Part shown: positions 31,245 through 63,999 of the stretch, one piece after another | How positions within the stretch are numbered: position 1 is the stretch's first letter | Layout of the letters: each line of letters starts with the position of its first letter | Source of the DNA: Schmidtea polychroa | Lineage: Eukaryota | Direction of reading: 5' to 3' | Assembly: GCA_044892525.1 (NCBI GenBank) | Contig: CM097885.1 | Coordinates: forward strand, 35,528,001-35,592,000 | Length of the DNA: 64,000 nt | The notes under the pieces: generated by a model | What the model was told of the DNA's origin: nothing | The model's input: only the letters and a program-made list of their open reading frames with translations | The model's database searches: none | Program-made: the position numbers and the translations under genes

Positions 31245-31260
31245 TTTTATTTATTATAAA

Positions 31261-32777: not shown

Positions 32778-33203
32778 ATGACTCCTTCAATATTAGATTT
32801 TTTAAAAACATTTGGAATAAATGCAAAAACAAATTTTGATTTAAAAGATTATGCAAATTATTTAAATTTAAAAATTAAAATATTAATGAATGATGAATTA
32901 TCAAGTCTGGAGAGTCCCCTGAATATAATAATCAATTATCAAAATTCAAATGAAAAAGGATCTCATTGGGTTTGTATATATAAGAAATCTATCTACTTTG
33001 ATTCTTTTGGGATTAAACCTACTAAAGAAGTTGAAGATTATCTCTTGAGGGGTTCTCCGATTGATTCCCCAAATGGTTATACTTTTAACTCTTTACAAGT
33101 TCAACCTTTGAATACTAAAATATGTGGTATTTTAAGTTTATATGTTTTGTATAGATTGAATAAGGGAGAGAGAAAGGGCATACGCAGGATTTTGAATCTA
33201 TAA
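32778..33203 (+). CDS. Adenain-like cysteine maturation protease
   Basis: GSHWVC, YFDSFG, Q..NTKICG give the His-Asp-Gln-Cys catalytic pattern. Confidence 0.92.
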   Translation: MTPSILDFLKTFGINAKTNFDLKDYANYLNLKIKILMNDELSSLESPLNIIINYQNSNEKGSHWVCIYKKSIYFDSFGIKPTKEVEDYLLRGSPIDSPNGYTFNSLQVQPLNTKICGILSLYVLYRLNKGERKGIRRILNL

Positions 33204-33289
33204 TTCAAGAAATTTATAATGATCTAGAATCTCTACTATAAGGATTTTTACTATAAGGATTTTTACTATATGAATTTACTACTAAAGAA

Positions 33290-34054: not shown

Positions 34055-34078
34055 AGATTCATTTTAAATTATTAATAA

Positions 34079-35089
34079 ATGAGTTCTTATATTCCATGTA
34101 ATAGAGGTGGTGGAACAATAAAAACAGGGTTTAATACAGAAGAAATATTAACTTTAACAGAAAATAAATATATTAATGAAAGAGGTGATTCAATGAAGGG
34201 TGATTTAATTTTAAATGGACACAAGATAAAAGAATTATCTTTTCCAACTGATGAAGCTGATGCAGTTAATAAGAAATATGTAGATGGTGTTAAAAAATAT
34301 ACTGATTTAACAACAACAAGAATTGAAAGTTCATTAACAACAAAAATTGATTCAATGGAATCAAAGCTTAATAATATCGAACAACGATTTAATGATAAAT
34401 TTGACAAGTTACAAAGTCTGTTAACTGAACAAGTTGTAAAGTTAAATACTGCTATATTAAATTCTAAAGATAAACAAATTATGAATACTAAATTTAATGC
34501 AATATATAATATAATAAATGAGATGATTACATCATTTAATAAAAGAATTTCAAATTTAGAGTCTCATGGAACACACATTAACACCACACATAGTATTAGA
34601 AAAAGAGCTGCTGAATTAGAACAGAATAAAACATTATTACCCCATACATTTAAACATTTTATAGAACCAAGTTTAATAACAACAAACAGTAAAGAATGGG
34701 GTGTTTTTATGGTTGTAAAAATTATTGATCCTTATTTCTTTTTGTTTGATGATGATAATGAAAGAATGAAATGGTTTGTGAAATGTGATTATAATAGTAA
34801 GCTTGAAAAGGGTGATGTTATAATGACTAGTTATGATTTACCACACGGAGATTGGTATGTTAATACTCATTCACATGGACTACATAAAGTTAAAAGTAAG
34901 AATATTCATTTTTCTAGTTCACTTGTACAATATATAGATTTAATATTTTATGAAAAAAAGGTTGATGTTGATGAAGTTCGTAAAGCATTGAGAGAATTGT
35001 ATAAAGATATCCTCTCAACAAGAGTTTCTTTTGATATCCGAGTATTGGTACCAGATGGTGCTCAGAAGAATAAAGTCTTATTTTTTTAA
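34079..35089 (+). CDS. Putative fibre/spike protein
   Basis: GDSMKGDLILNGHKIKELSFPTDEADAVNKKYVD fibre-type repeat, then coiled coil and a globular C-terminus; follows the penton gene. Confidence 0.6.
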   Translation: MSSYIPCNRGGGTIKTGFNTEEILTLTENKYINERGDSMKGDLILNGHKIKELSFPTDEADAVNKKYVDGVKKYTDLTTTRIESSLTTKIDSMESKLNNIEQRFNDKFDKLQSLLTEQVVKLNTAILNSKDKQIMNTKFNAIYNIINEMITSFNKRISNLESHGTHINTTHSIRKRAAELEQNKTLLPHTFKHFIEPSLITTNSKEWGVFMVVKIIDPYFFLFDDDNERMKWFVKCDYNSKLEKGDVIMTSYDLPHGDWYVNTHSHGLHKVKSKNIHFSSSLVQYIDLIFYEKKVDVDEVRKALRELYKDILSTRVSFDIRVLVPDGAQKNKVLFF

Positions 35090-35097
35090 TTATTAAA

Positions 35098-35688
35098 ATG
35101 GAAGAAGTAAGAGAAGAAAAAATTTACCCAGAATTGAGATCATCAGGATATTATTCTTCTAAGGCCTCGGCTCCCACAGAACTTGAAATTATGAGAGTAA
35201 AAGAATTTAAATCAGAAACCTTACATTTACAAGATTTATTAAAGCATTATAAAAAAATTAAAAATAGATGGAATAAAGGGAATACAGTTTTAAAAGTTAT
35301 AGGTTATTCTTTAGGATTTGCATCTGCAATATTAACAGTTATTTTACCCATAACTTTACCAGTTGTTACTCTTGCACCTGTAATACTTGGAAGTATTTCT
35401 GTGGCTGATGGTTTCTTAACTGAAATAGTTTCATTATCTTATACTTCTAAAAAGAAAAGTTTATATAGAGAAGTTTGTTTATCAATAGAATTAGGAATCT
35501 CTAAATTATTTTTATTTCAATTAAAAGCTTTGGAAGATGGAATCCTGACAGACGAAGAAATAATGAAATCAAATCAAATAATACAAGATATAAAGAATGA
35601 GGTTATAAGATTAAAAATGGAGGGCATGGTGGCTAATGTTATAAGTAATAAAAAAACATCTCGAGAAAAATGGTTAAAGAATTCTTAA
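35098..35688 (+). CDS. Membrane-hairpin protein (resembles the adintovirus GasderminX family)
   Basis: Basic helix, ~40-aa hydrophobic hairpin, KKK, KALEDGILTDEE. Confidence 0.6.
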   Translation: MEEVREEKIYPELRSSGYYSSKASAPTELEIMRVKEFKSETLHLQDLLKHYKKIKNRWNKGNTVLKVIGYSLGFASAILTVILPITLPVVTLAPVILGSISVADGFLTEIVSLSYTSKKKSLYREVCLSIELGISKLFLFQLKALEDGILTDEEIMKSNQIIQDIKNEVIRLKMEGMVANVISNKKTSREKWLKNS

Positions 35689-35788
35689 TTATAAAATGGG
35701 TGTATTTTTAAAAAAGTAGATCAGGTTGCTATAGTTGCTTAAATTAATTGTCGACATTTTATTATTAAAAAATTAAATATCGTTGGTT

Positions 35789-36343
35789 TCAGTTATGGTT
35801 GAAAGCCAACCTATGAATCATTAATTTATGATCTTTAAATTCTTTATCACTTAGACCTTTTATATATTCAGGATCAGTATTAAAATATTTAAGTTCTAAA
35901 CATATAGGATTAAAAACTTGAGAATATAAAGGTTTCTCGATTTCTCTCTCGGGATAAATAATTTCAACATTATAAATATCAAGATCAGTAATCTTTGTAT
36001 CATATAACTTATTCAACTTTTCTAGATTTTTTATTATAGGGATTAAATTATTTCCAATAGGTAGAGTTGTCTTTAAATCACTTAGTATGAATCTCTTATC
36101 ATCATAATTTGATAATGATATTTTTTGAGATTCTATCAAGTGAATATCATGGTTTTCACTTTTAAGTTGATGTATTTCATCAATTTTATCTTTATGATTT
36201 GGATTCAATGTATCTATATAATCTTGATGAGAAAGATTCTTTGCAACCACTCTCTGTATTCCTTTACATCTGTTATCCTTTAAATTAGTAATATTTTTTA
36301 TAATTTCAAAAATGTTATTTTCTTGATTTTTAGTTTCCATCAT
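35789..36343 (-). CDS. Stand-alone paralogue of the pPolB C-terminal (thumb + tail) region
   Basis: KGIQ..HQDY..LKSE.H.I.L..NYDDKRFILSDLKTTLPIGN.LIPIIKNL..LKYFNTDPEYI shared with the adjacent pPolB; has its own ATG. Confidence 0.8.
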   Translation of the reverse strand: MMETKNQENNIFEIIKNITNLKDNRCKGIQRVVAKNLSHQDYIDTLNPNHKDKIDEIHQLKSENHDIHLIESQKISLSNYDDKRFILSDLKTTLPIGNNLIPIIKNLEKLNKLYDTKITDLDIYNVEIIYPEREIEKPLYSQVFNPICLELKYFNTDPEYIKGLSDKEFKDHKLMIHRLAFNHN

Positions 36344-36367
36344 TTTATAGTGTTAAAATTCTAATTC

Positions 36368-39300
36368 TTAGACCAGTCGTAATTGATTTATAATTATTTC
36401 TGCAGTAATGCTTTTTAACATTAATTTATGTGATTTAGAGTCTTCTGGTGTTAGTCCTTGGATATATTCAGGATCAGTATTAAAATATTTAAGTTCTATA
36501 GGTTTTATATTTTGAACTTGATTATATAAAGGTTTAGGAATTAATATTTCAGGATATTGGATTTCTACTTTAGCAAGTTGAAGGTCTGTAATCTCTAGGT
36601 TATAAATTTCATTTATTTTATCAAGATTTTTTATTATAGGGATTAAATCATTTCCAATAGGTAATGTTGTCTTCAAGTCAGAAAGTATAAATCTTTTATC
36701 ATCATAATTTGTTATAGCAATCTTGTTACACTCTTCAAGATATATATTATGTTTCTCTGATTTAAGATGATGGGTTTTAGCAATTTTATTTTTATAATTT
36801 ATATTTAATGAATCTTTATACTCTTGATGTGTGAAGGTTTTTGACACTGATTTTTGAATTCCTTTACTTTTATTTTCTTTATAGCTTTTCGGGTTTTCAG
36901 GGAATGAAGGATATTCAAATGTGTGATCTATTTCAACAGATCCTTCTCCCTCCCCTATTATAAATTTTATTGTATGCTCTTTCATAATTGGTTTGTCTTT
37001 CATTTCAAGAGAATATTGTTTAGGTCTAATAAACACTCCTCCACTTATTGGAGTATTTGGTTTTTCATCTTTAAAAGTAAATAATTCTCCAGAGTTGTTT
37101 ATTAATTTATTTAAGGTTTCGTTTTCACTTATTTCCTTTTTTAAATCTTTACTATGACCTTTTAAAAACATACTATCAGTGTCCATAGCATGCATGGATA
37201 TTCGATCTCCAAAATGGGGTACTAGAACATCATAGTAGGTCTCATACATTTGAAGCTTTGAAAGTTCTAAAATTGAAAAATCTATAAAGATTGGTTTATT
37301 ATAAGTTTTTACAGAGTTTTTAATCTCTATAGCTATAAGGTTACTAGAGAATATCTCTGCATTTTTAAATGTAGGCTTTCCAATTATTCGATTATATTTA
37401 TTAAGATCTTTTGTTGTATTGGTTAAGAGCTCTACACGAGTATATTTATCAATATTCTCCATTGTCTTTCCAAAGACTGCATTGTTTAAAAGTTTATAAA
37501 TCATATCAAGAAAAGCATTTCCAGCTCTCTTTGCTGCATTTCTTTTTAAGATATTTCCCTCGATGAATTTTTTCATAAAAGGAGCTTGTCGAAATTTAAT
37601 TATAGAATGTACTTTTTTTAAAACCATTCCATATGAGAGATAAAACTGGAGGAGTCTATAATGACAAAGATAATCAGTTTTATCTGTTTGATCACATAAA
37701 AGTTTTATACATGGTGTTCTATTCTGAGCAATCTGCCAATCTGATAGTTCTTCAGGAGAGATCTTTCTTCTTACAGGAGCAAATGGAAAATATCTAGTTC
37801 TGGATTTTATTTCATTGGGATATTCAAGATCACATTCTACAACATATCCAAATTGAGAATCTTTTGGTGTTTTTAGAATTTCTTGTATTAATTCCTCAGT
37901 GGGTTCTGTCCAGGTGAACTTGCCAATTGAAAGGTATTGAGTCATTACTCCCGCATATAAAGCTGTTGCATCTATATACATTATTTCAGAAGGATTAGAA
38001 AGACCTTCCATTATTTCCTTACGATCTTCTGGGTTTGTTATTTCTACATATAGAGCATCAGGATCTTTGAAAAATTTAGGATAAAGAGTTGTAAAATTAT
38101 TAGCATTTATTTCTCTATTCCCTTGTACTGAAGAAATACCTCCTCTAATATTATGTTTATATACATTAAACATATCAAGCTCAACTAATAATTCAATAGT
38201 TTTATTTCTTACTGCTACATCTTCATCAGTCCATATGGTATATAATAATATATCCCAAGCTAGAGAGGGAGCGGTTATATAATTATAAGGTTTTAATTCA
38301 AAAGCTTTTGAAAATGTCTCGAAGCAATCAGCTAAGATATAAACATCCAAGGAAAGATACATGTCAGTATATTCTCCAAGGTTTCTACAGTTGAATAGAT
38401 TCCACATTTTAACTGCACGGGAATATTCCTGATCAGAAATCCCTGATTGTGTTAAAACAGAAAAGAAATCTTCTTGGGGTGGGAGTAATTCATTATATTT
38501 TTCAAAGGAGTCTATATAATCATATGAATAGATTCCTTTTGCTAGACAGGTATTATATTCCTCTAATGGAATATTGTTTTTTAATAACACATGTTCTTTT
38601 GTATATTTAAAATCCTCAGGGTTCATAGTTTTAGCAATCCCATCCAAAGACATCCCTAAGAAATTTAACGAGTCCAAAAACTTAAAGCATCCATATTGAA
38701 TGCTTTTATATTTTTCTTTTGTAAGTCCAATAACCTTGAAAGAGATTTTAGCATTTGCGGCCAGATGCTTAATGAATAGGTGAATATCATAGCCAAAAAG
38801 ATTGTGAAATATAAATGGTATGTGTGTTGGTTTTTTACAATTGAGATTACATTTTTATGGGCTGCTCCTCTGTAATTATTTTCTCTTTTAAAATGATCAT
38901 GGTCTGCAACCTTTGGCTCCTCATCCTCCTCCTCCTGAATATCAAACTCTTGTTTACACATCCAGCAGTGTGTTGCATTTTTATATTCTTCCTCTTGTTC
39001 TTCTGAAAAATTCATAGGAAAGTTGGATTTTAATATTATATATAATTCATGTTCTAGATTATTTAAAGTTTTAACAAAATGATCTAGAGTCTCTTTGTCA
39101 GAAGTTCCTCTAAATGAATATTCTCTAGATTCTACAAGTTCTGGATAATTACTTTTAAAAAACATTTTATAAGCAGAGGGTAATTGTTTTGTTAGTTTTA
39201 CAGTATTAGTTTTTGTTCGTCTTAGTTTTACATTTATAGCTTCAAAATCACAATAAACCACTCCCAATGCTTCTAATAGATTGGAATAGTTTTTAAACCT

Positions 39301-40760
39301 CATATTAGCATTTTTCTTGTGTGGCATTTTTATTAAAGCAGGTTGATTCTTACAACAGAGTCTCTCATGTTTAATAGCAGCAAGTTTTGAACTTGAATGA
39401 TATAAACATCTTTTACAACATATGCCTCCACGAATGAGTGTGTTTCCTTTCATAAAACTTTGAAAATTCTTTATTAAGATATAATGAAGTTTTTTATCTA
39501 ACATAGTGCCTCCGGACGCAGTGCTTTCTGCTTCTGGTTCTAATGAAATGCCTTCTTCTGCTTCTCTCCTCGGGTGAACGCTTTGAACCTCTTCACCATA
39601 TTCTTCTCCATCAAAGTCTTCATCTGGTTTACCTTCTTCTAATATTAAAAGATCTACTTCTCTCTTTTCATCTGAGATTTCCATGTTAGAAATGTAAATA
39701 GGAATAATGTGTTTATAATTTTTATTTTTTCTAGTTTTTGTAATTTTGGTTGGAATGAATTGATAAATATTAATTTTAAGATTATTTAATTTTTCAAATG
39801 CTGGAACATCTTCAATTTTCATTGGGTGGGAAAAATCTTTTGGATAAATTAATTCAGATTCATATTCTTCATATTTTTGAACTCTCTGTGGGTTAGTTGC
39901 TTGAGGATGTAAGTGTGCAAGTATTGACCATTGAAAACATTTATTATCTTTATTCTGTACATTTATAACATGGTTGGAGGTGAATGGTGTGTGAATAAAA
40001 GATTTAGGATTTGGTGGTGCGCCTCTCCAGTATTCAATCTCTATATTTTGAAAAGAGTGGAATCTTAAATTAGATTCTCCTAGTTCTTGTTCCACCTGTT
40101 CTTGTTTTTCTTCCAATTCTTTAGCTATATCATTAACAAGTTTATTTCCTGCTTTTGTAGAAAATAAATATTTATATGAGGTTTCAATTTTTACATCTAG
40201 AGGCATTGCGATTGAATCATCTCCTCTCCAGTATTTTGCATTTCCTGTAAATTTAACTTTTATAACATTAAATCTTGATCTACCAAATTTTTTTATAGCA
40301 TCATCCATTGATGATATTATTTTTTTTTATTTTCTCTTATATATTGCATGATTGATCTGGGTCCTCGTTTTACTTCTACAATTACATCGGTGTGATTGAA
40401 GTTGTCCCAATTAAACTCTAGTTTTTCAGCTTTTTCAGTCATTGAGTTTGAATCAGAATCTTTTGCTTCAAGACCACAATCTTCTATGTGTCTTAAGTAA
40501 AAAGATTTTATCTTCATCTTTTTTCCACATGCTGAACATTCGAATATTTCTCTGTTTTTAGGAACTCCAATACAATTTTTAAAATGCTTCTTATAACCTG
40601 AAAATAAATATCTATCCTTACATTTAGAACAGATTTTGGAATTAGTGTCATCTAGTGTGTTAGCTTTTATTAAATGGTCTTTTGATTTTTTATGAGATGT
40701 TAAAGCAGTTTTATTTTTAAAATTTTTTTCACAAATTTCACAATTGAAAATAGCTTCCAT
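36368..40760 (-). pseudogene. pPolB of B with N-terminal C2H2 zinc fingers, split by two single-base frameshifts in A-runs
   Basis: Adding one A at 40320-40328 joins RENKKK to IISSMDDAIKK. Adding one A at 38852-38856 restores RGAAHKKCNLNC..FHNLFGYD. Motifs YCDFE, YIDATALY, KLLNNAVFGKT, MDTDS, RPKQY. Confidence 0.9.
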
Positions 40761-40833
40761 TTTTAAAAGAATTTTTTGGTTGGATACGATGTTTTGGTTT
40801 TGATATTAATTTTTATTTTCTTTAAATCTAAAA

Positions 40834-41165
40834 GTGATCAGGCGACCTAGATCATTATGAATTAGGTAATCTGATATTCTTATAACATTAAATCCTTATA
40901 ACATTAAATCCTTAAGACCAAGTAGTGAGGAATCTATGCACCCCGTTACCTTTTCTCGGAATTACTAATCTATAAATACATCTATTCCGAACTTTTTTAC
41001 TTTTAAGGGAAGAAATTAAGGGTTAATGGCAATAGGGGACAAAGTTTAAAAGTTAAAAAAAGTGAAGAATATGGGGTAAAAAAGCATATAAATGTGGAAA
41101 ATATGGGTCAATAGCGCTGTTTTTTTTAGGGTGGGGGTGCTGGGGTGCATAGATTCCTCACTACT
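40834..41165 (-). repeat. Right TIR of B, with an internal terminus copy at 40921-40944
   Basis: Reverse complement of 25935-26267. Confidence 0.96.
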
Positions 41166-46801: not shown

Positions 46802-47166
46802 TTTGCAAATATAGTTCCATGGCCTTTCATTCGTTTGTTTATACGTGATATTCCATGTCTTTTACGTTTTGGAGCATGAGCTGGAGCTGGAGGTTTTTCT
46901 TTTTGAAACATACCTGCAACCCCGGGAAAAACTTTCCCTAATTCTGCTAAAGCATTTGATTTTAGAGATGGTAATATTTTCTGTTCATTCATAATAACAT
47001 CTTTAGCAGTTTTCATACCAAAACTACCAATACGTTTAAGAATAGGAAGTGCAAATCTACCAATTGTTCTCAACCATTCTGATCCGTACTGTTTACCAAT
47101 AAAATATGGTAATTCACCGCCAGATTGGCTACCACTATACATACTTATAATATCCGAATTAGCCAT
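46798..47166 (-). CDS. Basic core protein precursor (pVII-like) of A
   Basis: QSGGELPYFIG.QYG..WLRTIGRFALPILK and a basic C-terminus; overlaps its neighbours by a few bases between the minor and major capsid genes. Confidence 0.8.
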   Translation of the reverse strand: MANSDIISMYSGSQSGGELPYFIGKQYGSEWLRTIGRFALPILKRIGSFGMKTAKDVIMNEQKILPSLKSNALAELGKVFPGVAGMFQKEKPPAPAHAPKRKRHGISRINKRMKGHGTIFAK

Positions 47167-48149
47167 CTACTTTACGAAAATGTAATGTTAAATGAGTTTT
47201 TGAATCTTTTGGAAATGCGATTAATTTACCAGAATCATCACGTATATTTATTTCTATATTGTTTATACATGAGGTTGACACAGGTAAATACATGGGATTA
47301 TCGATATTTATATTGACTACTTCATCATGTTCATATTTTTCAATCCAAACAGATTTCAGGAGTGGGACCAAAGAATCGCCAACAATAACAGGATCAACAA
47401 TATTACTATAGATGAACATTTGTTGGTGAAGTTTAATTATTTTCGGAGCTAGGGTACCTTGATCATCTTGAGCATATGTTGCTTTTGATAATCCTAATGT
47501 TTTTATTAGATTTGCATCAAAAGTAATTTCAGTAAATTCGGGATTCAAACTGAATTTGAATCTGTCTGATATTTCCAATGATTTAAATAAACCACTTTGT
47601 TTTAAATATGTCTGTAATTCATCCAATTTCGAAATGTATAAATTATCTTTGAACTCAAATGTACCAGACGTTATACCCGGATATGAAACTGTAAATAAAA
47701 TTGGTTCAAATCGCTGTACAGTTTTGGAATATCCCGGTCGTAGCACAGTGAATTTATCGGAAAGAACTTTATGACTTTGGGTTTTTAATTCCAATCGTTT
47801 TGCCATTTCCAAACTATCAAATTTTACAGTAAAAGGATAATTTTTACATTCAACTACTATATATGGATGGTTAATATACATTTTCACAGCTGGATCAGTT
47901 GAATTAGACAACCGAACTTCATCATCTGCATTATCAATGATCATAGACAATAATCTATCCTGCCACTCATTCTTTTTGTATCCAATTTTAGCCTTACTAT
48001 AAAATGGAAAGGCTTGGTATACAAATGTAAAATCCAACAGAGCAACTTCCCAGCTATTATCCAAATATATCGGATTTTGAAGATTGACCCTGAATTTGCT
48101 GGCTTTATTATCTGGATATATAAGTGGACAGCTATTGCTAGGTAAAATA
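47159..48149 (-). pseudogene. Minor capsid protein of A, disrupted by D; first codons lie at 63826-63813
   Basis: Removing D and one TSD gives MNFYIILPSNSCPLIYPDNKASKFRVNL..WEVAL; C-terminal MFIYSNIV..VGDSLVPLL, IEINIRDDSG, LTLHFRK. Confidence 0.93.
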
Positions 48150-49619
48150 AGTAGGTAGATAGTAGCCCACTGGAACAATTACCCCCCCCCGGGGGGGGGG
48201 GGGGGGTAAAATTGTTCCAACTTTTTATTACGCAATTGTTCCAACTCACATTTTTTGCTTTCAGGGATTTTTGGTCCAAATTATTTTTTTATCACACTAT
48301 AGTGAGGGGGTCTCGATGGTCCTGGGATTTTCAATACAAAAAATTTTTTTCAATACAAAAAGCTGGTCTACACTAAAAAAGCCAAGGAATTTTCAGACTA
48401 TAGTGAGGAGGTCTCGATGGTCCTGGGATTTTCAATACAAAAAATTTTTTTCTATACAAAAACGATGGTCCTGGGATTTTCAATACAAAAAAAAAATTTC
48501 TATACAAAAATCCGACTACCACTAAAAAGCATGGAATTTTCACGCTATAGTGAAGGGGTCTCGATGGTCCTGGGATTTTCAATACAAAAATCCTACTACC
48601 AATAAAAAAGCCAAGGATTTTTCAGACTATAGTGAGGTGAGTCTCCTTGGTCCTGAGAAATAGGTGGTCTACACTAAAAAAGCATGGTAATTTAAGGTCT
48701 CGGGATATTTTCAATACAAAAAGCTGGTCTACACTAAAAAAGCCAAGGATTTTTCAGACTATAGTGAGGTGAGTCTCCTTGGTCCTGAGAAATAGGTGGT
48801 CTACACTAAAAACGTGGTAAATTTTTCAATTAAAGTAAATAATGGTCCTAAAAATTAAATTAAAGTAAATTATGGTCCTAAAAATTAAATTATAGTAAAT
48901 TATGGCTCAAATTTTTAAATTACAGTAAATTATGGTCCTAAAAAATTAAATTACAGTAAATTATGGTCAAAAATTTTAAATTAAAAAAAACAATGGTTCA
49001 AATTTTTCAAATACAGTAAATTATGGGTCTAAAAATTAAATTACAGTAAATAATGGTTCTAAAAATTAAATTAAAGTAAATTATGGTTCTAAAATATTAA
49101 ATTACAGTAAATTATGGTCCAGATTTTTCAATTAAAGTAAATAATGGTCCAAATTTTTAAATTAAAGTAAATTTAAGTTCTTAAAAATTAAATTACAGTA
49201 AATAATGGTCCAAATTTTTAAATTAAGTAATCAATGGTAAAAAATTTTAAATAAGTAAATTAAAGTAATAATTTTTAAATTAAGTAATCAATGGTAAAAA
49301 ATTTTAAATAAGTAAATTAAAGTAAGATTTTAAAATTTAATTACAAAATAATAGAAGGTGTTTGAGAATTGAAATTTTTTAATGAAAATTTTTATGAAAT
49401 AATTTTTAAGTAATTTTTAATAGAAATTTTAATGAAATATTTTTCAATGGTAATTTTTAATGGAAATTTTTATGGAATAATTTTTTAAGTAATTTTTAAT
49501 GTAAATTTTTATGAAATATTTTTCAATGATAATTTTAGATGGAAATTTTTAAGATAATTTTTAATGAAAATTTTTATGACATATTTATCAAAGACAAATT
49601 TTAATAATAATTCAACAAC

Positions 49620-51170
49620 AAACCAACAACTTAGTACCAACAACCAGTAACTTACGAACATATATTAACAACCAGATACCTACAACTAGTTACTAACAAC
49701 TAGTTACATGATACTAAGTAAATACAACCACCTAACAAGTACTAACAACCAAAAACAAGCAACCAACCAGGTACCAGTTACCAACTACTAAGTACCTACA
49801 ACCAACTAGTTACCTGATACCAAGTACTTACAACTAAATACTAACAACCAGTTACCTGATACCTAGTACTTAAAACTAGTTACTAACAACCAAAAACAAG
49901 CAACCAACTAGCTACCAAGTACTAACAATCAAAAACAACTAGCTAACAACTAGATACCAAGTACCTACAACCACCTACCTATTAACTAGCTACCAAGTAC
50001 TAACAACTAACAACAACCAGGTACTAGATACCAAGTACTAACAACCTACAACAACTAGGTACTAAGCATTATCAACCAAGTACCTAAAACCACCTAACAA
50101 GTACATACAACCAACATCAACCAGGTACCTACAACTAGATACTAACAAACAGTTACGAAGTACCTACAACCACCTACCCATTAACTAGCTACAACCAGCT
50201 AACAACTAACAACCAGATACCTACTACTTACAACCAACAACTAAGTACTAACAACCACCTAACAAGTACATACAACCAACATCAACCAAGTACCTAAAAC
50301 CACCTAACAAGTACATACAACCAACATCAACCAGGTACCTACAACTAGATACTAACAAACAGTTACGAAGTACCTACAACCATCTACCCATTAACCACCT
50401 AACAAGTACCTACAACCAACTACTAAGTACTAACAACCAAAAACAACCAACTAGGTACTAGATACCAAGTACTTACAACAAACATCAACCAAGTACTTAC
50501 TACCAACTACCAAGTACTTACAACTAGTTACTAACAACTAGTTACCTGCTACCAAGTACTTACAATTAGTTACTAACAACCAGTTACCTGATACCAAGTA
50601 CCTACAACCAACTACTAAGCATTAATTACCTACAACTAGTTACTAACAACTAGATACCAAGTACTTACAACCAACATCAACCAGGTACCAGTTACCAACT
50701 ACTAAGTACCTACAACCAACTAGTTACCTGATACCAAGTACTTACAACCAACATCAACCAGGTACTAAGCATCATCAACTAACTACTAAGTACCTACAAC
50801 CTACAACTAGATACTAAAAACCAGTTACCTGCTACCAAGTACTTACAACTAGTTACTAACAACCAACCAACTAGGTACTAGATACCAAGTACTAACAACC
50901 AACAACAACCAGGTACTAAGCATTATTAACCAACTAGAGTACCTACTAAGTACCTACAACCAACTAACAACCACCTACCAAGTACTAACAACCAGTTACC
51001 AACTACTAAGCATTAATTACATACAACTAGTTACTAACAACTAGATACCAAGTACATATAACCAACATCAACCAGGTACTAAGCATTATCAACCAAGTAC
51101 TAACAACCAAGTAACTTACCTAGTACTAAGCACTGTCAACTAGATACCAAACACTTACAACCAGATGACC
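49620..51170 (+). repeat. Strand-skewed C/A-rich scrambled minisatellite (ACTAACAACC, ACCAAGTAC, CTAGTTAC words), mirrored at ~60790-62340
   Basis: Direct reading. Confidence 0.9.
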
Positions 51171-51455
51171 ACATGAAATTATTGGTTAAATATGAAAATA
51201 AGGATTATATTTAGTTGTTTAGTAAATTATGGTGTAAAATTAAGAAATAAAGAATAATTAGGTAAATTAAGGATAAGTAAATTAAAGTTAAAAATTTTAA
51301 ATTAAAGAAAACAATGGTTCAAAATTTAAATTAAAGCTAAAGTAAGATTTTTAAATTTATTATCAAAAGATTGAATAACCACCAACTTTTTTGAGAAATG
51401 TAATTTATAATGAAAATTTAAATGGAAATTTAAATGGAATAATAATAATAATAAT

Positions 51456-51526
<71 letters not shown>

Positions 51527-54454
51527 TACTAATAATTCAACAGTTACCAACAATCGGTTACTGATTATTTTTTAACTAGGTGCTAACAAATACTTACACC
51601 ATGATACCACGTACTAACTAACTCTCAAACAACCAGATACTTACAACTAACTACTAAATATTCTTTATTGTATTTTATGAAATGCTTTTTAAATTAATTT
51701 TTTATCTATCTTCAAAAATATATTTAATTACAATCATTAGAAAAACCTTTTCAAATTTAACAAAAATGTTGATTTTCATCAAAAAACCACAACTCATCAC
51801 CACGTGGAATTCAAAATAATTTTAATTACAATGAAAGACTAATGAATTCTAATTTACAAAACATTCTTCTTTTAATTGATAACTTATTATTGCAAAGTAA
51901 AAATCGCATTCAATAAATACTTATTGTTGATCAGTTTTATTATATATACTCTGAGTTTATCCGACAGGATGTTTTGACCCCCTAAGGGTACAGGTCGTAA
52001 GGGTACTAGTCGTAAGGGTACTGGTCGTAAGGGTACTGGTCGTAAAGGTACTAGTCGTAAAGGTACTAGTCGTAGGGGTATTGATCACTCTCAATCCCCA
52101 CCTACTCATTAATTAGCTTCCATATACTAACCACTAGCTTTCAAACAACTAAATACTAAACACTTACAACCATGTACTAACAACCACCATCAAAACCCAT
52201 CGAGAAATTAACAAATATCAACCTACAACTAGATACTTACAACCAGATACCTGCTACCAAGTACCAAGTACTAACAACCAACTACTTACAACCAACAACT
52301 ATGTACTAACAAATTGATCTTTAAAAAGAAAAATACTCATCACTTGAAAAATTAGATGAAAAATTAATTGAACTCAAGGCACTTTTAAGATATTTGAACT
52401 CAAGGCATCAATAACTTGGTAAAAATTGATTAAATTATTGTAAAAATTTAAATTATTCAAAATATACTAAATTAAAAAAATATAATTAATGGACAAGAAA
52501 GAACTTTAAATTCTAGTCATTGATCATTCAAGTTAATATGAATCAACTAAGATAATAAATTAATAAGAATTTTGAAATAAGATCTAGTAGATAATTGATT
52601 TAGATTGAATAAATTAATTGAAATAAAATTAAATTTAATTATTTTTTTAAAAGTAATACATGTACTCAAATTGATTGACTGATTTCTCAATATATTCAAA
52701 AAATCAGTATAAATTCATTACAATTATCAAAGTCAGCAATCTACAATAAAAATAATTATCATTAAATTCCAAAAGAGACTAGATAACTAATGATAACATC
52801 TAACAAACCAGTAAATTCATTTAAATAATTGGTATATTCAAGCGAATTCTCTAATAAAATCATCTAAAAAGAATCATTTTCCCTGAAATATATCAATATT
52901 TAAAGATTGGTATTTTAATGATAAGTACTTGTTAAAGATCATATATTCACCTCGAACTAACAAGATTCCTTAAAATTCCTCAAATGACTATATTTCTACC
53001 CTTAATTCGTATTATTACAAATATTTCACTAAAATCATCTAAAAAGCATCAAATTTCCCTGAAATAACTATATCTTTAAAGATTAGTATTTTATCGATAA
53101 ATATCCTTAAAAGGTTATATATTTACCTCTGACTAATAAGATTGCTTTAATTCCTATTATCACGAATATTTCCTTATAAAACATGTAAAATCATTAACCC
53201 TAAAGAATTTATAAAATCTAATGACAAAACCGGTTATAATAAAATTTTTGTTAATCACTGTAAATTTTTGTAAATCACTGTACTCGAAATTTAAAATAAA
53301 TATAACTGACTAGGTCCCATTGAAAGATTAAATTTATCCATTCAATAAAATATATTTCTTCAAATGATCATTTTACCGATATTCAACCGATTTAATTACT
53401 AATTAAAATCAAGATTTCTTCCAATAAAGATCAATTTTATTTAGTCGATGTTTTAAGTCCATATTTCTCAACTTTTGTCGTTGTCCGTCTAAATAAAGAT
53501 AAAAATAATTTAAAGCTGATATCAATCCCAATTATCTGTAAAGTTTTCATCGTCAAAACCAAGTAAATCGATCATTATCCCTACTTAATAAAACATTGTT
53601 CTAAAATAATTTACTGTGCATTAATCACAACCTAATAAAACGATATAATTATTATTGATTCATAACTGACTAATGTATTGCAATTTCTCACATTAAATCT
53701 AACCGACTATATCCCCTTAAAAGATCATATTTTCCCCATCTTAACCGACCTCTCATTAAATCTAACCAACAATATCCCATCTTAACCGATCTCTCATTAA
53801 ATCTAACCGACTATATCCCTTTAAAAATCGTATATTCCCATCTTAACCCATCCCTCATTAAATTTAATAACCGACAATATCCCATCTTATCCGATCTCTC
53901 AGCAAATATTTCTACCCTTTTAAACATCTAACCGAATATATCCTTCAATTCTACCCACTTGAATCCTCCTTTAATTCAATTCAGTCTTAAAATCTTTAAA
54001 GAACTTCAAAAATATGACTTAATTGTTATAGACACCAAATATTCTTCCATTGAAATAATTTAGTAGCTATGTAGTAAGAGTTCACTAAAAGATCAAAAAT
54101 CAATATTTTCTACAAATATTTACCATCAAATACTGGAGATGATATATATTGATTGATCATAATTCTTCATCGATTCAACCAATTATTTTCAAGCAATAAC
54201 AGCAAACTAAATTTCTGTATATCCTACAATAATTATCAAGTAAATTTAAAGTCATTGATAAATATTCTTAGAAAATTATTGAAAAAAAATTATCTAGTCA
54301 AATATATTACAAAGTTATCATCAAAAATTTATTCTATCACTTAATTATTAACCTAATTGTCAATGAAATTAATTTTTATTTAAAAACTATTCAATAAAAT
54401 ACAACTAATTATCAAGAAATTAATTAAATTTATCATAGAACTAACTTTAAACAT

Positions 54455-54740
54455 GAAATTCACAAAAAACGATAAAAATTCACAAGAATGATAGAAATTC
54501 ACAAAAAACGATAAAAATTCACAAGAATGATAGAAATTCACAAGAATGATAAAAATTCACAAGAATGATAGAAATTCACAAGAATGATAAAAATCCACAA
54601 GAATAATAGAAATTCACAAGAATGATAGAAATTCATAAAAATGATAGAAATTCACAAAAAAGATAGACAATTACAAAAATAATGGAAATTCACAAAAATG
54701 ATAGAAATTCATAAAAATGATAGAAATCCGCGAAAATGAT
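54455..54740 (+). repeat. ~21-bp tandem repeat AATTCACAAGAATGATAGAA, mirrored at ~57220-57505
   Basis: Direct reading. Confidence 0.9.
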
Positions 54741-56429
54741 AGCAATTTACTTGAATATTTACTAAAACCATCAACTCTAAAAATTATCAATGAGTGCCTT
54801 AAAGAACAAATTTGTCTAAATAATCATTCAAATAAAAGCATTAAATACCTTTACGACTAATACTATTACGACATGTTGAATGTGAGTAGTACCCTTGTGA
54901 GCAATACCCATAGGGGGACAGAATATTTTGTCGGATAAACTCCGAGTATATATTAATTAACTCATTCTTCATTGAATCAGTAAAATTATCATAAATTTCG
55001 ATAAAAATTCTAAAGTGGTAAGCAATGAAAAGACAATTATTCTTTAAACTTTGATAAAATTAACAATGGTGGTAAGAATCTTCATTAAAGTGAGGAAATT
55101 ACTCGATGATAAATTCAAATGGGTGAAAATAATTGGTAGAATAATTCATTAATGGATCATTGAATGGGCATAGATAAGATGAAGGTTGATAAGAATGGAT
55201 GTATTGCAACTATTTTCTAAAAATTAACACTTTAATTAAAAAAAAACTTTTAAAACAAATATTTGTGGGGATGTTTTAAGTGAATAATTAATCAAAATCG
55301 GCGGAATATAAATAGAAAATCGGGGTGGGGGTTATAGGCGAATAATTAATGGAAATTCGAGGGGATATAAGTGAATAATTAATGGAGAATCGGGGGAATA
55401 TAGGAGATTAAATAGTGGGATAATGAGAATCGGTGGAATATAAGTGAGAAGGATATGTAATTTAAACTATTTTATTACGTAACAAGCCGCGACTAATTTA
55501 TTACATAACAAGCTGTGGATGGTATTTTATTGAGAATTATTGATTAGGTCTTTTTTTTTTTAATTTTTGAATAGGTACTTTAATACCTTAATAATTTAAA
55601 TGTTTTGATTTACACTAAATAATTTCTAAATCAATTACCCTTTTCAATCAAAATAAGTTAATATTCAAATATAAGTCTTAGAAAATATAAATTTTATAAG
55701 TAAAGCTTTTTTAAATAAATGTAAATAAGAAATTAATTTATTACCAGTTATATACTTTAAAACTTTTTTATGGAATAAGACAAAAATTTTGTTGTATGAG
55801 TCCTTTAATATTGTAATAATTATTTATTAATAAATTTATTATTCTACACTAAATATTTCAAAAACAATTATCATATTATTAATTATATTACTCCTTTCAA
55901 TAAAAATAAGATAAATATTCAAATAAATATCTTATAAAATACAATTAAAATTAAATTCTTTACACTAAATTTAAAAATATAAGTTTCATAAGAAAATGTG
56001 AATAAGAAATTGATTTATTAACAGTTATAGACTTTTTAAACTTAATGATGGAATTAGGTAATAGAAAGTAATTTTTCTTTTTAAAAAGTCCTTTAATATT
56101 GTATTCTATTCATTATTAAATTTACTATTTTACACTAAAATATTTTAATTTAGAAAAAAAAATCATCATAATATTGAATATAATACTTCAATCAAAATAA
56201 GTTAATACTCAAATATATGTCTTATAAAATACAATCAAAATTAAATATTTCACTAAATTTTAAGTAAAGTTTTTTAAATTTTCAGATAAATGTTAACAAG
56301 ATATTAATTTATTAATCATTATAGACTTTTTATACTTATTATTGGTATTAAACAATAGAATGATATTGAAAATATATACAATTTAAAAAATACAATTAAA
56401 ATTAAAATTATATACCATGTATAATGTTG

Positions 56430-59400
56430 ATAAAATATCATTCACAGCTTGTTATGTAATAAATTAGTCGCGGCTTGTTACGTAATAAAATAGTTTAAAA
56501 ACATATCCTTCTCACTTATATTCCACCGATTCTCATTATCCCACTATTTAATCTCCTATATTCCCCCGATTCTCCATTAATTATTCACTTATATCCCCTC
56601 GAATTTCCATTAATTATTCGCCTATAACCCCCACCCCGATTTTCTATTTATATTCCGCCGATTTTGATTAATTATTCACTTAAAACATCCCCACAAATAT
56701 TTGTTTTAAAAGTTTTTTTTTTAATTAAAGTGTTAATTTTTAGAAAATAGTTGCAATACATCCATTCTTATCAACCTTCATCTTATCTATGCCCATTCAA
56801 TGATCCATTAATGAATTATTCTACCAATTATTTTCACCCATTTGAATTTATCATCGAGTAATTTCCTCACTTTAATGAAGATTCTTACCACCATTGTTAA
56901 TTTTATCAAAGTTTAAAGAATAATTGTCTTTTCATTGCTTACCACTTTAGAATTTTTATCGAAATTTATGATAATTTTACTGATTCAATGAAGAATGAGT
57001 TAATTAATATATACTCGGAGTTTATCCGACAAAATATTCTGTCCCCCTATGGGTATTGCTCACAAGGGTACTACTCACATTCAACATGTCGTAATAGTAT
57101 TAGTCGTAAAGGTATTTAATGCTTTTATTTGAATGATTATTTAGACAAATTTGTTCTTTAAGGCACTCATTGATAATTTTTAGAGTTGATGGTTTTAGTA
57201 AATATTCAAGTAAATTGCTATCATTTTCGCGGATTTCTATCATTTTTATGAATTTCTATCATTTTTGTGAATTTCCATTATTTTTGTAATTGTCTATCTT
57301 TTTTGTGAATTTCTATCATTTTTATGAATTTCTATCATTCTTGTGAATTTCTATTATTCTTGTGGATTTTTATCATTCTTGTGAATTTCTATCATTCTTG
57401 TGAATTTTTATCATTCTTGTGAATTTCTATCATTCTTGTGAATTTTTATCGTTTTTTGTGAATTTCTATCATTCTTGTGAATTTTTATCGTTTTTTGTGA
57501 ATTTCATGTTTAAAGTTAGTTCTATGATAAATTTAATTAATTTCTTGATAATTAGTTGTATTTTATTGAATAGTTTTTAAATAAAAATTAATTTCATTGA
57601 CAATTAGGTTAATAATTAAGTGATAGAATAAATTTTTGATGATAACTTTGTAATATATTTGACTAGATAATTTTTTTTCAATAATTTTCTAAGAATATTT
57701 ATCAATGACTTTAAATTTACTTGATAATTATTGTAGGATATACAGAAATTTAGTTTGCTGTTATTGCTTGAAAATAATTGGTTGAATCGATGAAGAATTA
57801 TGATCAATCAATATATATCATCTCCAGTATTTGATGGTAAATATTTGTAGAAAATATTGATTTTTGATCTTTTAGTGAACTCTTACTACATAGCTACTAA
57901 ATTATTTCAATGGAAGAATATTTGGTGTCTATAACAATTAAGTCATATTTTTGAAGTTCTTTAAAGATTTTAAGACTGAATTGAATTAAAGGAGGATTCA
58001 AGTGGGTAGAATTGAAGGATATATTCGGTTAGATGTTTAAAAGGGTAGAAATATTTGCTGAGAGATCGGATAAGATGGGATATTGTCGGTTATTAAATTT
58101 AATGAGGGATGGGTTAAGATGGGAATATACGATTTTTAAAGGGATATAGTCGGTTAGATTTAATGAGAGATCGGTTAAGATGGGATATTGTTGGTTAGAT
58201 TTAATGAGAGGTCGGTTAAGATGGGGAAAATATGATCTTTTAAGGGGATATAGTCGGTTAGATTTAATGTGAGAAATTGCAATACATTAGTCAGTTATGA
58301 ATCAATAATAATTATATCGTTTTATTAGGTTGTGATTAATGCACAGTAAATTATTTTAGAACAATGTTTTATTAAGTAGGGATAATGATCGATTTACTTG
58401 GTTTTGACGATGAAAACTTTACAGATAATTGGGATTGATATCAGCTTTAAATTATTTTTATCTTTATTTAGACGGACAACGACAAAAGTTGAGAAATATG
58501 GACTTAAAACATCGACTAAATAAAATTGATCTTTATTGGAAGAAATCTTGATTTTAATTAGTAATTAAATCGGTTGAATATCGGTAAAATGATCATTTGA
58601 AGAAATATATTTTATTGAATGGATAAATTTAATCTTTCAATGGGACCTAGTCAGTTATATTTATTTTAAATTTCGAGTACAGTGATTTACAAAAATTTAC
58701 AGTGATTAACAAAAATTTTATTATAACCGGTTTTGTCATTAGATTTTATAAATTCTTTAGGGTTAATGATTTTACATGTTTTATAAGGAAATATTCGTGA
58801 TAATAGGAATTAAAGCAATCTTATTAGTCAGAGGTAAATATATAACCTTTTAAGGATATTTATCGATAAAATACTAATCTTTAAAGATATAGTTATTTCA
58901 GGGAAATTTGATGCTTTTTAGATGATTTTAGTGAAATATTTGTAATAATACGAATTAAGGGTAGAAATATAGTCATTTGAGGAATTTTAAGGAATCTTGT
59001 TAGTTCGAGGTGAATATATGATCTTTAACAAGTACTTATCATTAAAATACCAATCTTTAAATATTGATATATTTCAGGGAAAATGATTCTTTTTAGATGA
59101 TTTTATTAGAGAATTCGCTTGAATATACCAATTATTTAAATGAATTTACTGGTTTGTTAGATGTTATCATTAGTTATCTAGTCTCTTTTGGAATTTAATG
59201 ATAATTATTTTTATTGTAGATTGCTGACTTTGATAATTGTAATGAATTTATACTGATTTTTTGAATATATTGAGAAATCAGTCAATCAATTTGAGTACAT
59301 GTATTACTTTTAAAAAAATAATTAAATTTAATTTTATTTAAATTAATTTATTCAATCTAAATCAATTATCTACTAGATCTTATTTCAAAATTCTTATTAA

Positions 59401-60433
59401 TTTATTATCTTAGTTGATTCATATTAACTTGAATGATCAATGACTAGAATTTAAAGTTCTTTCTTGTCCATTAATTATATTTTTTTAATTTAGTATATTT
59501 TGAATAATTTAAATTTTTACAATAATTTAATCAATTTTTACCAAGTTATTGATGCCTTGAGTTCAAATATCTTAAAAGTGCCTTGAGTTCAATTAATTTT
59601 TCATCTAATTTTTCAAGTGATGAGTATTTTTCTTTTTAAAGATCAATTTGTTAGTACATAGTTGTTGGTTGTAAGTAGTTGGTTGTTAGTACTTGGTACT
59701 TGGTAGCAGGTATCTGGTTGTAAGTATCTAGTTGTAGGTTGATATTTGTTAATTTCTCGATGGGTTTTGATGGTGGTTGTTAGTACATGGTTGTAAGTGT
59801 TTAGTATTTAGTTGTTTGAAAGCTAGTGGTTAGTATATGGAAGCTAATTAATGAGTAGGTGGGGATTGAGAGTGATCAATACCCCTACGACTAGTACCTT
59901 TACGACTAGTACCTTTACGACCAGTACCCTTACGACCAGTACCCTTACGACTAGTACCCTTACGACCTGTACCCTTAGGGGGTCAAAACATCCTGTCGGA
60001 TAAACTCAGAGTATATATAATAAAACTGATCAACAATAAGTATTTATTGAATGCGATTTTTACTTTGCAATAATAAGTTATCAATTAAAAGAAGAATGTT
60101 TTGTAAATTAGAATTCATTAGTCTTTCATTGTAATTAAAATTATTTTGAATTCCACGTGGTGATGAGTTGTGGTTTTTTGATGAAAATCAACATTTTTGT
60201 TAAATTTGAAAAGGTTTTTCTAATGATTGTAATTAAATATATTTTTGAAGATAGATAAAAAATTAATTTAAAAAGCATTTCATAAAATACAATAAAGAAT
60301 ATTTAGTAGTTAGTTGTAAGTATCTGGTTGTTTGAGAGTTAGTTAGTACGTGGTATCATGGTGTAAGTATTTGTTAGCACCTAGTTAAAAAATAATCAGT
60401 AACCGATTGTTGGTAACTGTTGAATTATTAGTA

Positions 60434-60504
<71 letters not shown>

Positions 60505-63500
60505 ATTATTATTATTATTATTCCATTTAAATTTCCATTTAAATTTTCATTATAAATTACATTTCTCAAAAAAGTTGGTGGTTATTCAATCTTTTGATAA
60601 TAAATTTAAAAATCTTACTTTAGCTTTAATTTAAATTTTGAACCATTGTTTTCTTTAATTTAAAATTTTTAACTTTAATTTACTTATCCTTAATTTACCT
60701 AATTATTCTTTATTTCTTAATTTTACACCATAATTTACTAAACAACTAAATATAATCCTTATTTTCATATTTAACCAATAATTTCATGTGGTCATCTGGT
60801 TGTAAGTGTTTGGTATCTAGTTGACAGTGCTTAGTACTAGGTAAGTTACTTGGTTGTTAGTACTTGGTTGATAATGCTTAGTACCTGGTTGATGTTGGTT
60901 ATATGTACTTGGTATCTAGTTGTTAGTAACTAGTTGTATGTAATTAATGCTTAGTAGTTGGTAACTGGTTGTTAGTACTTGGTAGGTGGTTGTTAGTTGG
61001 TTGTAGGTACTTAGTAGGTACTCTAGTTGGTTAATAATGCTTAGTACCTGGTTGTTGTTGGTTGTTAGTACTTGGTATCTAGTACCTAGTTGGTTGGTTG
61101 TTAGTAACTAGTTGTAAGTATTTGGTAGCAGGTAACTGGTTTTTAGTATCTAGTTGTAGGTTGTAGGTACTTAGTAGTTAGTTGATGATGCTTAGTACCT
61201 GGTTGATGTTGGTTGTAAGTACTTGGTATCAGGTAACTAGTTGGTTGTAGGTACTTAGTAGTTGGTAACTGGTACCTGGTTGATGTTGGTTGTAAGTACT
61301 TGGTATCTAGTTGTTAGTAACTAGTTGTAGGTAATTAATGCTTAGTAGTTGGTTGTAGGTACTTGGTATCAGGTAACTGGTTGTTAGTAACTAATTGTAA
61401 GTACTTGGTAGCAGGTAACTAGTTGTTAGTAACTAGTTGTAAGTACTTGGTAGTTGGTAGTAAGTACTTGGTTGATGTTTGTTGTAAGTACTTGGTATCT
61501 AGTACCTAGTTGGTTGTTTTTGGTTGTTAGTACTTAGTAGTTGGTTGTAGGTACTTGTTAGGTGGTTAATGGGTAGATGGTTGTAGGTACTTCGTAACTG
61601 TTTGTTAGTATCTAGTTGTAGGTACCTGGTTGATGTTGGTTGTATGTACTTGTTAGGTGGTTTTAGGTACTTGGTTGATGTTGGTTGTATGTACTTGTTA
61701 GGTGGTTGTTAGTACTTAGTTGTTGGTTGTAAGTAGTAGGTATCTGGTTGTTAGTTGTTAGCTGGTTGTAGCTAGTTAATGGGTAGGTGGTTGTAGGTAC
61801 TTCGTAACTGTTTGTTAGTATCTAGTTGTAGGTACCTGGTTGATGTTGGTTGTATGTACTTGTTAGGTGGTTTTAGGTACTTGGTTGATAATGCTTAGTA
61901 CCTAGTTGTTGTAGGTTGTTAGTACTTGGTATCTAGTACCTGGTTGTTGTTAGTTGTTAGTACTTGGTAGCTAGTTAATAGGTAGGTGGTTGTAGGTACT
62001 TGGTATCTAGTTGTTAGCTAGTTGTTTTTGATTGTTAGTACTTGGTAGCTAGTTGGTTGCTTGTTTTTGGTTGTTAGTAACTAGTTTTAAGTACTAGGTA
62101 TCAGGTAACTGGTTGTTAGTATTTAGTTGTAAGTACTTGGTATCAGGTAACTAGTTGGTTGTAGGTACTTAGTAGTTGGTAACTGGTACCTGGTTGGTTG
62201 CTTGTTTTTGGTTGTTAGTACTTGTTAGGTGGTTGTATTTACTTAGTATCATGTAACTAGTTGTTAGTAACTAGTTGTAGGTATCTGGTTGTTAATATAT
62301 GTTCGTAAGTTACTGGTTGTTGGTACTAAGTTGTTGGTTTGTTGTTGAATTATTATTAAAATTTGTCTTTGATAAATATGTCATAAAAATTTTCATTAAA
62401 AATTATCTTAAAAATTTCCATCTAAAATTATCATTGAAAAATATTTCATAAAAATTTACATTAAAAATTACTTAAAAAATTATTCCATAAAAATTTCCAT
62501 TAAAAATTACCATTGAAAAATATTTCATTAAAATTTCTATTAAAAATTACTTAAAAATTATTTCATAAAAATTTTCATTAAAAAATTTCAATTCTCAAAC
62601 ACCTTCTATTATTTTGTAATTAAATTTTAAAATCTTACTTTAATTTACTTATTTAAAATTTTTTACCATTGATTACTTAATTTAAAAATTATTACTTTAA
62701 TTTACTTATTTAAAATTTTTTACCATTGATTACTTAATTTAAAAATTTGGACCATTATTTACTGTAATTTAATTTTTAAGAACTTAAATTTACTTTAATT
62801 TAAAAATTTGGACCATTATTTACTTTAATTGAAAAATCTGGACCATAATTTACTGTAATTTAATATTTTAGAACCATAATTTACTTTAATTTAATTTTTA
62901 GAACCATTATTTACTGTAATTTAATTTTTAGACCCATAATTTACTGTATTTGAAAAATTTGAACCATTGTTTTTTTTAATTTAAAATTTTTGACCATAAT
63001 TTACTGTAATTTAATTTTTTAGGACCATAATTTACTGTAATTTAAAAATTTGAGCCATAATTTACTATAATTTAATTTTTAGGACCATAATTTACTTTAA
63101 TTTAATTTTTAGGACCATTATTTACTTTAATTGAAAAATTTACCACGTTTTTAGTGTAGACCACCTATTTCTCAGGACCAAGGAGACTCACCTCACTATA
63201 GTCTGAAAAATCCTTGGCTTTTTTAGTGTAGACCAGCTTTTTGTATTGAAAATATCCCGAGACCTTAAATTACCATGCTTTTTTAGTGTAGACCACCTAT
63301 TTCTCAGGACCAAGGAGACTCACCTCACTATAGTCTGAAAAATCCTTGGCTTTTTTATTGGTAGTAGGATTTTTGTATTGAAAATCCCAGGACCATCGAG
63401 ACCCTTTCACTATAGCGTGAAAATTCCATGCTTTTTAGTGGTAGTCGGATTTTTGTATAGAAATTTTTTTTTTGTATTGAAAATCCCAGGACCATTGTTT

Positions 63501-63806
63501 TTGTATAGAAAAAATTTTTTTGTATTGAAAATCCCAGGACCATCGAGACCTCCTCACTATAGTCTGAAAATTCCTTGGCTTTTTTAGTGTAGACCAGCTT
63601 TTTGTATTGAAAAAAATTTTTTGTATTGAAAATCCCAGGACCATCGAGACCCCCTCACTATAGTGTGATAAAAAAATAATTTGGACCAAAAATCCCTGAA
63701 AGCAAAAAATGTGAGTTGGAACAATTGCGTAATAAAAAGTTGGAACAATTTTACCCCCCCCCCCCTGGGGGGGGTAATTGTTCCAGTGGGCTACTATCTA
63801 CCTACT
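56430..63806 (-). repeat. Right arm (~7.4 kb) of D
   Basis: Reverse complement of 48150-55530. Confidence 0.96.
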
Positions 63807-63822
63807 AAAATAATATAAAAAT

Positions 63823-63999
63823 TCATTTTACTAGGTCTTTTGACGATATCCATGACGGGTTTTGATAACCGTGCCATTTGATATAGTATTGTTTATCCTT
63901 ACCGACCTTTTTAGTTTTCAATATTTTTTGAATTCTAAATACTTTTGGGGGAGGAATGACTTGTAATTCCTGCTCATAAAATTTCCCCTGTACAATATT
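63823..63999 (-). CDS. C-terminus of the Polinton integrase of A, with chromodomain (rest outside window)
   Basis: Manual translation NIVQGKFYEQELQVIPPPKVFRIQKILKTKKVGKDKQYYIKWHGYQNPSWISSKDLVK*; its TGA overlaps the minor capsid ATG (ATGA). Confidence 0.88.
   Translation of the reverse strand, partial: NIVQGKFYEQELQVIPPPKVFRIQKILKTKKVGKDKQYYIKWHGYQNPSWISSKDLVK

Follow-up and report, generated by a model that had tools for sequence, protein, structure and literature searches.

The stretch analysed here (the window) comprises 64,000 nt of Schmidtea polychroa contig CM097885.1, and positions 48150..63806 of it are occupied by D, an element that consists of two long inverted arms around a spacer and carries no genes. 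Gene-less palindromic relatives of D in the same genome are referred to as D-type elements. D has the ends of a Polinton (also called Maverick), and a coding Polinton family with such ends is likely to be its helper and is so named below. We consider it probable that D is a non-autonomous satellite of this resident family, a satellite that would be copied outside the chromosome, corrected by fold-back, supplied with new ends by exchange and integrated by the helper. The parts of D are as follows.

48144..48149: left copy of the target-site duplication (TSD), AAAATA (window self-comparison)
48150..55530, plus strand: left arm, 7,381 bp (self-BLAST)
48150..49611, plus strand: helper-type terminal repeat, minisatellite-rich, 81-82% identical to the coding Polintons' terminal inverted repeat (TIR) over 1.46 kb and 99.6% over the first 560 bp
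48171..48219, plus strand: sub-terminal stem around a C-run/G-run, with an 8-bp outer stem that shows compensatory changes across end types
49620..51170, plus strand: A/C-rich minisatellite, absent from the helper, with many degenerate inverted copies of the terminal 16-mer
51171..55530, plus strand: inner AT-rich non-coding core, colinear in 15 of 15 other gene-less copies compared and without a match in the helper interior
54865..54959, plus strand: motif of 65-90 bp that A-type Polintons also have in their terminal region (86-94% identity)
55531..56429: spacer, 899 bp, homologous (80-99.9%) in 20 of 20 copies chosen, in either orientation
56430..63806, minus strand: right arm, the reverse complement of the left (self-BLAST)
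63807..63812: right copy of the TSD (window self-comparison)

Structure and setting of element D

In a self-BLAST of the window, the two arms (48150-55530 against 63806-56430) gave a single inverted alignment of 7,382 columns with 99.797% identity, and the palindrome makes up 94% of D. Mismatches fall in 15 columns, five of them within the terminal C/G run. Both termini read AGTAGGTAGATAGTAG with the 6-bp sequence AAAATA outside each, and the end motif AGTAG(G)TAG together with a 6-bp TSD places D among the Polintons by TIR and TSD; the end is not identical to the exact (AGT)2 motif of vertebrate Polintons/Mavericks. The longest ATG-started open reading frame (ORF) in D has 69 aa, and genes for a protein-primed polymerase B, a retroviral-type integrase, a capsid protein, an ATPase and a protease were not found in it by ORF scan and tblastn. 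A tblastn search of D and 15 relatives with 59 ORFs from Polintons of the same genome found no coding remnant, apart from two exceptions that do not concern Polinton genes: the sole match in D is a short stretch of shared non-coding motif, and one of the 16 gene-less copies holds an unrelated retroelement insert. No tRNA was found in D, and its left arm and spacer gave no Rfam match near the gathering score; two sub-threshold microRNA matches in that scan were treated as chance, and a 7SL head was absent from the arm and spacer scanned. An earlier note on this DNA had described arms of ~7.4 kb, a ~0.9-kb spacer, the TSD AAAATA and the lack of coding capacity, and these measurements bear it out.

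Tandem repeats cover 46% of D. Their share is 84% in the outer 1.46 kb, 91% in the 1.55 kb that follow and 29% in the inner arm, and the spacer has none. The suggestion that D reaches its length with minisatellite filler is thus right in part, as the repeats are extensive but account for only some of the length, given their low share of the inner arm and their absence from the spacer. The minisatellite at 49620-51170 holds 14 matches with at most four mismatches to the inverted terminal 16-mer, a number that permuted 16-mers reached in two trials out of 5,000, and four coding or coding-derived copies contain none of the 220 14-mers sampled from this minisatellite. As a speculation, it might act as a set of decoy origins or binding sites. 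The motif at 54865..54959 has a partial inverted copy at 51942-51966.

D lies in a gene of Polinton A, between A's integrase and capsid genes. A extends from 20160 to ~6.4 kb beyond the window end, has the TSD TATCAT and itself sits within an older D-type element, so that four Polinton-type insertions are nested: the older D-type element, A inside it, and then B and D inside A. The neighbouring features are these.

15867-20159, continuing past the window (further sequence from L040:6395 onward): older D-type element, the landing site of A (window comparison)
25935-41165: Polinton B, inside A's polymerase gene, TSD AATTTG
47159..48149, minus strand: main part of the interrupted A gene, ~329 codons, 49% identical to the helper's equivalent, probable minor capsid gene
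63807..63826, minus strand: start codon and first codons of the interrupted A gene, directly behind A's integrase-chromodomain gene

Contigs of three of four runs cross from the left-flank sequence of D into its right-flank sequence without D, which means that uninterrupted copies of the A-type host element exist; in contigs of those runs, many different flanks precede the D-type end. The split of an A gene across D's flanks stands as the earlier note had it. Its identification as a minor capsid gene is suggested by gene order and by atlas clusters dominated by Preplasmiviricota, and the gene gave no match to a Pfam family named minor capsid.

Other features of the window were also recorded. 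The integrase ORF of B (29032-30285) has a phospholipase A2-like domain (PF08398) fused at its N terminus. A polymerase-only element with terminal repeats of the D/helper type occupies 7816-15866, and within it 13797-14544 is 73-79% like the inner arm of D, a possible helper/satellite chimera. Another polymerase-only copy, of 9.6 kb and with a TSD, lies elsewhere (L019-L020).

A coding family with the same ends

Exact matches to the D terminal 24-mer number 155 in the 781-Mb genome and form 51 inward-facing pairs less than 60 kb apart. By class these are 38 gene-less D-like elements, 11 coding elements, one polymerase-only element and one other, as judged from whole sequences in 11 cases and from a 6-kb centre probe only in 40. 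The genome contains 2,663 copies of one 22-mer from the D inner arm and 2,194 of another, balanced between strands, and a 22-mer of the helper capsid gene occurs 216 times. In the first 100 of the 2,194 hits, 66 fall in 33 inward pairs and 34 are unpaired. Extrapolated from this one chromosome stretch, the genome would hold roughly 700 two-armed D-type copies, about 300 of them full-size, plus fragments. Dozens of copies share the arm-spacer-arm plan, at an arm identity of 79 to 99.9%. An 801-bp arm segment has its best 40 matches at 98-100% identity, so that the family is young and active now or recently.

Of the copies with both ends found, 19 of 21 gene-less ones and 12 of 12 coding ones have a 6-bp TSD (one end was absent from the fetched stretch in five further gene-less and two coding copies). 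Among the 19 gene-less cases, one TSD has a mismatch, one flanks a three-armed copy at its outer ends, and one follows an extra terminal trinucleotide, as expected from slide-back priming. The three-armed copy (L021-L023) is 28.8 kb long; its outermost ends carry the TSD, and a terminus lies in its middle. Another D-type copy (L003-L004) contains an insert of ~4.6 kb, which has inverted repeats of 1.6 kb and two ORFs, of 768 and 376 aa, that resemble reverse transcriptases. Two copies, G000:C14:610149-625371 and C4:80593807-80609029, are equal in length and in centre alignment and are probably one locus assembled twice.

The coding family with D-type ends is represented by 19 copies of 16.4-18.0 kb (median 17.3) with TIRs of up to ~1.6 kb. 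Its genes include an rve integrase, an A32-like ATPase and a protease-like gene; the atlas clusters nearest to its capsid gene have a double jelly-roll (DJR)-like domain in 24-30% of their members, and a 1,415-aa ORF is 69% identical to a window protein that matches Pfam pPolB. The earlier note had read D as a foldback satellite that is non-autonomous, bears the integration signature of a Polinton and is mobilised in trans, and the same-ended coding family and the TSD census agree with that. It had measured D against Polinton B, which was rejected both as helper and as size yardstick, since its ends and TSD context differ. The match between D and the helper is confined to the outer ~1.46 kb. 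The other proposal of the earlier note, a snap-back defective genome, could not be upheld: 1.46 of 7.4 kb match, and the arms are not a duplicated helper end. Derivation of the D core from the helper interior was likewise rejected, the matches being weak, AT-rich and obtained at word size 7. Collectively, a dependence of D on the same-ended coding family is well supported by these comparisons, and helper proteins would presumably mobilise it.

The helper also has a TATA-binding-protein-like ORF (PF00352, E=3e-16; L005:2263-2736, minus strand), of which host element A has a look-alike at the corresponding position (L040 region). The helper capsid 22-mer occurs in inward pairs 1.5-4 kb apart (22-mer matches at G000:C1:67846051/67850118, 79932665/79935686 and 216076200/216077694, and at C2:2390398/2393261), which suggests fold-back forms of the coding element.

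The ends of the two classes were compared in several ways. The first 560 bp of D are 99.6% identical to those of three coding copies. In the D-type copy S2, the inner arm has no both-arm differences from D over 3.7 kb, and the ends on both sides are of another type, 98.9% identical to a different coding copy. Four end types are common to the coding and gene-less classes. On a tree of 29 left ends (six gappy ends were left out), the coding/gene-less label changes eight times, against a mean of 8.7 after shuffling, and a single clade of gene-less ends was rejected (approximately unbiased test, AU, p=0.00035). The 8-bp stem that encloses the C/G run has 90% of its cells paired and two-sided changes in four of its eight pairs; pairing across end types was as high in none of 500 shuffles and much lower in slid controls, a test that relatedness inflates. 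As read from these alignments, end types have been exchanged between D-type elements and the helper. The observed properties of the D family are ends held in common with the helper, TSDs of 6 bp, a high copy number, arms that evolve in concert and this exchange.

Arms and lengths of the copies and how they may arise

Differences from D were counted in 11 comparable copies according to whether they are present in both arms or in one; four more copies were dropped because one arm gave no anchor. In eight of the 11, the both-arm/one-arm counts are 329/0, 209/1, 202/16, 157/2, 63/0, 24/4, 2/0 and 0/0. A palindrome created a single time and thereafter copied whole would accumulate one-arm changes only, and repeated correction is therefore required. 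Correction during replication outside the chromosome appears to be the best mechanism, and the panhandle model of protein-primed replicons (PMC11886824) would provide for it.

The explanation that we favour, D as a satellite of the helper family, can be set out in steps. First, D would retain at each end only the terminal repeat of the helper, with its origin and its integrase site, and the remainder would be a self-complementary non-coding core. Second, the protein-primed polymerase of the helper would copy D outside the chromosome. Third, the displaced single strand could fold back over almost its full length, restoring a double-stranded origin at once and thereby giving D a replication advantage; the same folding would let one arm correct the other. 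Fourth, annealing or template switching among co-replicating genomes may produce mosaic arms and new end types, which would later appear on both ends. Finally, the helper integrase would insert the replicated product.

The lengths of the copies bear on a further step, passage through the helper capsid. Among gene-less copies selected by their ends (one likely duplicate and one insert-bearing copy left out), 32 of 36 measure 14.9-18.0 kb, with a median of 16.6, and outer parts tend to be longer where inner parts are shorter (rho -0.49, p=0.053, n=16), a trend that is suggestive only, as related copies are not independent. Intact vertebrate Mavericks are given as 16,862 +/- 1,678 bp in part of one study, a spread of ~10% that its authors tie to a capsid constraint (PMC8097293). 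The length plot called for by the earlier note has a peak just below helper size with few longer copies, so that the outcome which that note named as refuting did not occur, and it also contains gene-less copies of 10-13 kb, which form a class of their own; all three short copies with both ends found have TSDs. Selection for a packageable size is plausible, and we put the chance that the 15-18-kb size reflects passage through the helper capsid at slightly under even. The fuller picture, a true satellite of an endogenous polintovirus, is rather more tentative, and we lean against it: D would be a hairpin of genome size, lacking genes, that the helper replicates, packages and integrates; it would be kept at capsid size and be able to out-replicate the helper through a fold-back origin and decoy origins while swapping ends with it.

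Several observations weigh against a satellite copied, corrected and kept at size in this manner. The inner 5.9 kb of the D arm and the spacer have only weak AT-rich matches to the helper interior (word size 7). The integrase frame of the helper has three stops in a short AT-rich, intron-like stretch (L005 ~4500-4550), identical in three of three copies, so that the integrase may be donated by this or another family; vertebrate Mavericks are reported as intronless in part of PMC8097293. The remaining three of the 11 copies have very unequal arms (228/103, 15/276 and 81/196), so that correction is not obligatory; their arms look like mosaics, with segments that match arms of other copies at 97-100% identity. 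In the sample of 33 pairs selected by marker, independently of ends, 15 are full-size, 12 shorter and six longer, and five short copies that were fetched are asymmetric or centre-deleted, with differing breakpoints. Two of 21 copies, S2 and S4, lack a TSD and have flanks that mirror each other for 432 bp (L024-L025 with L121-L122) and 2,852 bp (L028-L029 with L123-L124), the result of either arm copying past the element end in the chromosome or assembly error. Finally, the left junction of D was not bridged by any contig among those listed (32 of 2,225 pieces), as contigs break at the repeated end, a result that in itself favours neither side.

Some of these points would suit a rival account, which we nevertheless regard as unlikely, namely that D is an ordinary, very large non-autonomous Polinton derivative moved by the helper integrase and polymerase, whose arms are matched in the chromosome by gene conversion or fork template switching and whose size reflects ancestry. 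The mirrored flanks of S2 and S4, the three-armed 28.8-kb copy with its outer TSD, the common short forms of 10-13 kb and the existence of paired-end copies of 22.6 and 25.3 kb (lengths that include any insertions) speak in its favour. However, many copies keep arms that are only 77-95% alike, which indicates that conversion in place is inefficient; both ends change type together between sister copies with cores less than 1% apart; and lengths cluster below 18 kb though the minisatellites vary freely.

It is very improbable that the palindrome is an assembly artefact, produced by fold-back chimeric long reads or repeat collapse. Arms that are 99.8% alike, mirrored flanks in two other copies and the unbridged junction among the contigs listed would be expected of such an artefact, but D's flanks differ, bear the TSD and adjoin each other in uninterrupted copies, the arms differ at 15 columns, the same plan is seen in dozens of copies over a wide range of arm identity, and marker hits are strand-balanced and pair inward. 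Least credible of all is an origin from an autonomous Polinton that has decayed, or from a foldback transposon of the classical kind with its own transposase and merely Polinton-like ends, for although the core has no match to the helper interior and a second Polinton family has a short motif in common with D, the 16 copies searched with the 59 ORFs hold no coding remnant save the unrelated retroelement insert, the copies are young by their top 40 matches and the ends are 99.6% identical to coding Polintons.

The satellite explanation has several consequences. Polinton replication and virion formation in animals have so far been inferred, not observed. The D family is free of coding constraint yet keeps helper ends, a helper-like length and matched arms, and could serve as a natural reporter of fold-back correction and end exchange. 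It predicts abundant linear DNA of 15-18 kb that snaps back and might be present in particles. As this genome holds very long palindromes by the hundred, there are also consequences for its stability and assembly. If D is a true polintovirus satellite, it would provide indirect evidence that animal Polintons form particles and would represent a natural satellite class not described for that virus group.

Comparison with known systems

No description of a genome-sized, gene-less, palindromic Polinton was found in the literature searched, mostly as listings, with Repbase and subscription journals outside its coverage. The portions available of PMC6431247, PMC3014272, 10.1101/2024.01.15.575659, PMC8097293, 10.64898/2025.12.11.693146, PMC2396429, 10.1101/2023.08.22.554363 and PMC11886824 do not describe such an element.

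D has in common with Polintons/Mavericks, as portrayed in part of PMC8097293, the AGT-repeat-like ends, the 6-bp TSD and a length near 17 kb. Excerpts of the sources give Maverick TIRs as 46-1,447 bp in vertebrates (PMC8097293) and Polinton TIRs generally as 100-1,500 bp (10.1101/2023.08.22.554363), and for the anole an excerpt states that no non-autonomous Polintons were seen (PMC3014272). D differs from Polintons/Mavericks in that it has no genes and its inverted repeats measure 7.4 kb.

Non-autonomous Polinton derivatives and elements like miniature inverted-repeat transposable elements (MITEs) were reportedly described by Kapitonov and Jurka in 2006 and in Repbase; these are said to keep the ends, lose the genes, move in trans and outnumber the helper. 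D likewise keeps the ends, lacks genes and outnumbers its helper. Unlike them, D is neither a deletion derivative nor a miniature, being helper-sized, with an unrelated core, concerted arms and continual end exchange.

Foldback transposons such as FB and Galileo have long inverted arms with internal tandem repeats, variable lengths and rearranged copies, and they use a P- or Mutator-like transposase and have other TSD lengths. D, in contrast, has Polinton ends, a 6-bp TSD and no transposase ORF.

Two virus systems are also comparable. The SYREC form of adenovirus 12 is said to be a palindrome of genome length that bears an identical viral end at either side and is packaged into virions. SYREC is a laboratory isolate, whereas D belongs to a natural, integrating germline family of hundreds of copies. 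An excerpt on SYREC presents it as a helper-dependent recombinant of viral and non-viral DNA, the word "symmetric" coming from a cited title (PMC2396429). In the panhandle model for adenovirus and PRD1, as outlined in part of PMC11886824, the displaced strand folds on its inverted repeats and so restores end homology, direct evidence being lacking. Compared to that model, the "handle" of D would be nearly the whole molecule, and its record lies in integrated copies.

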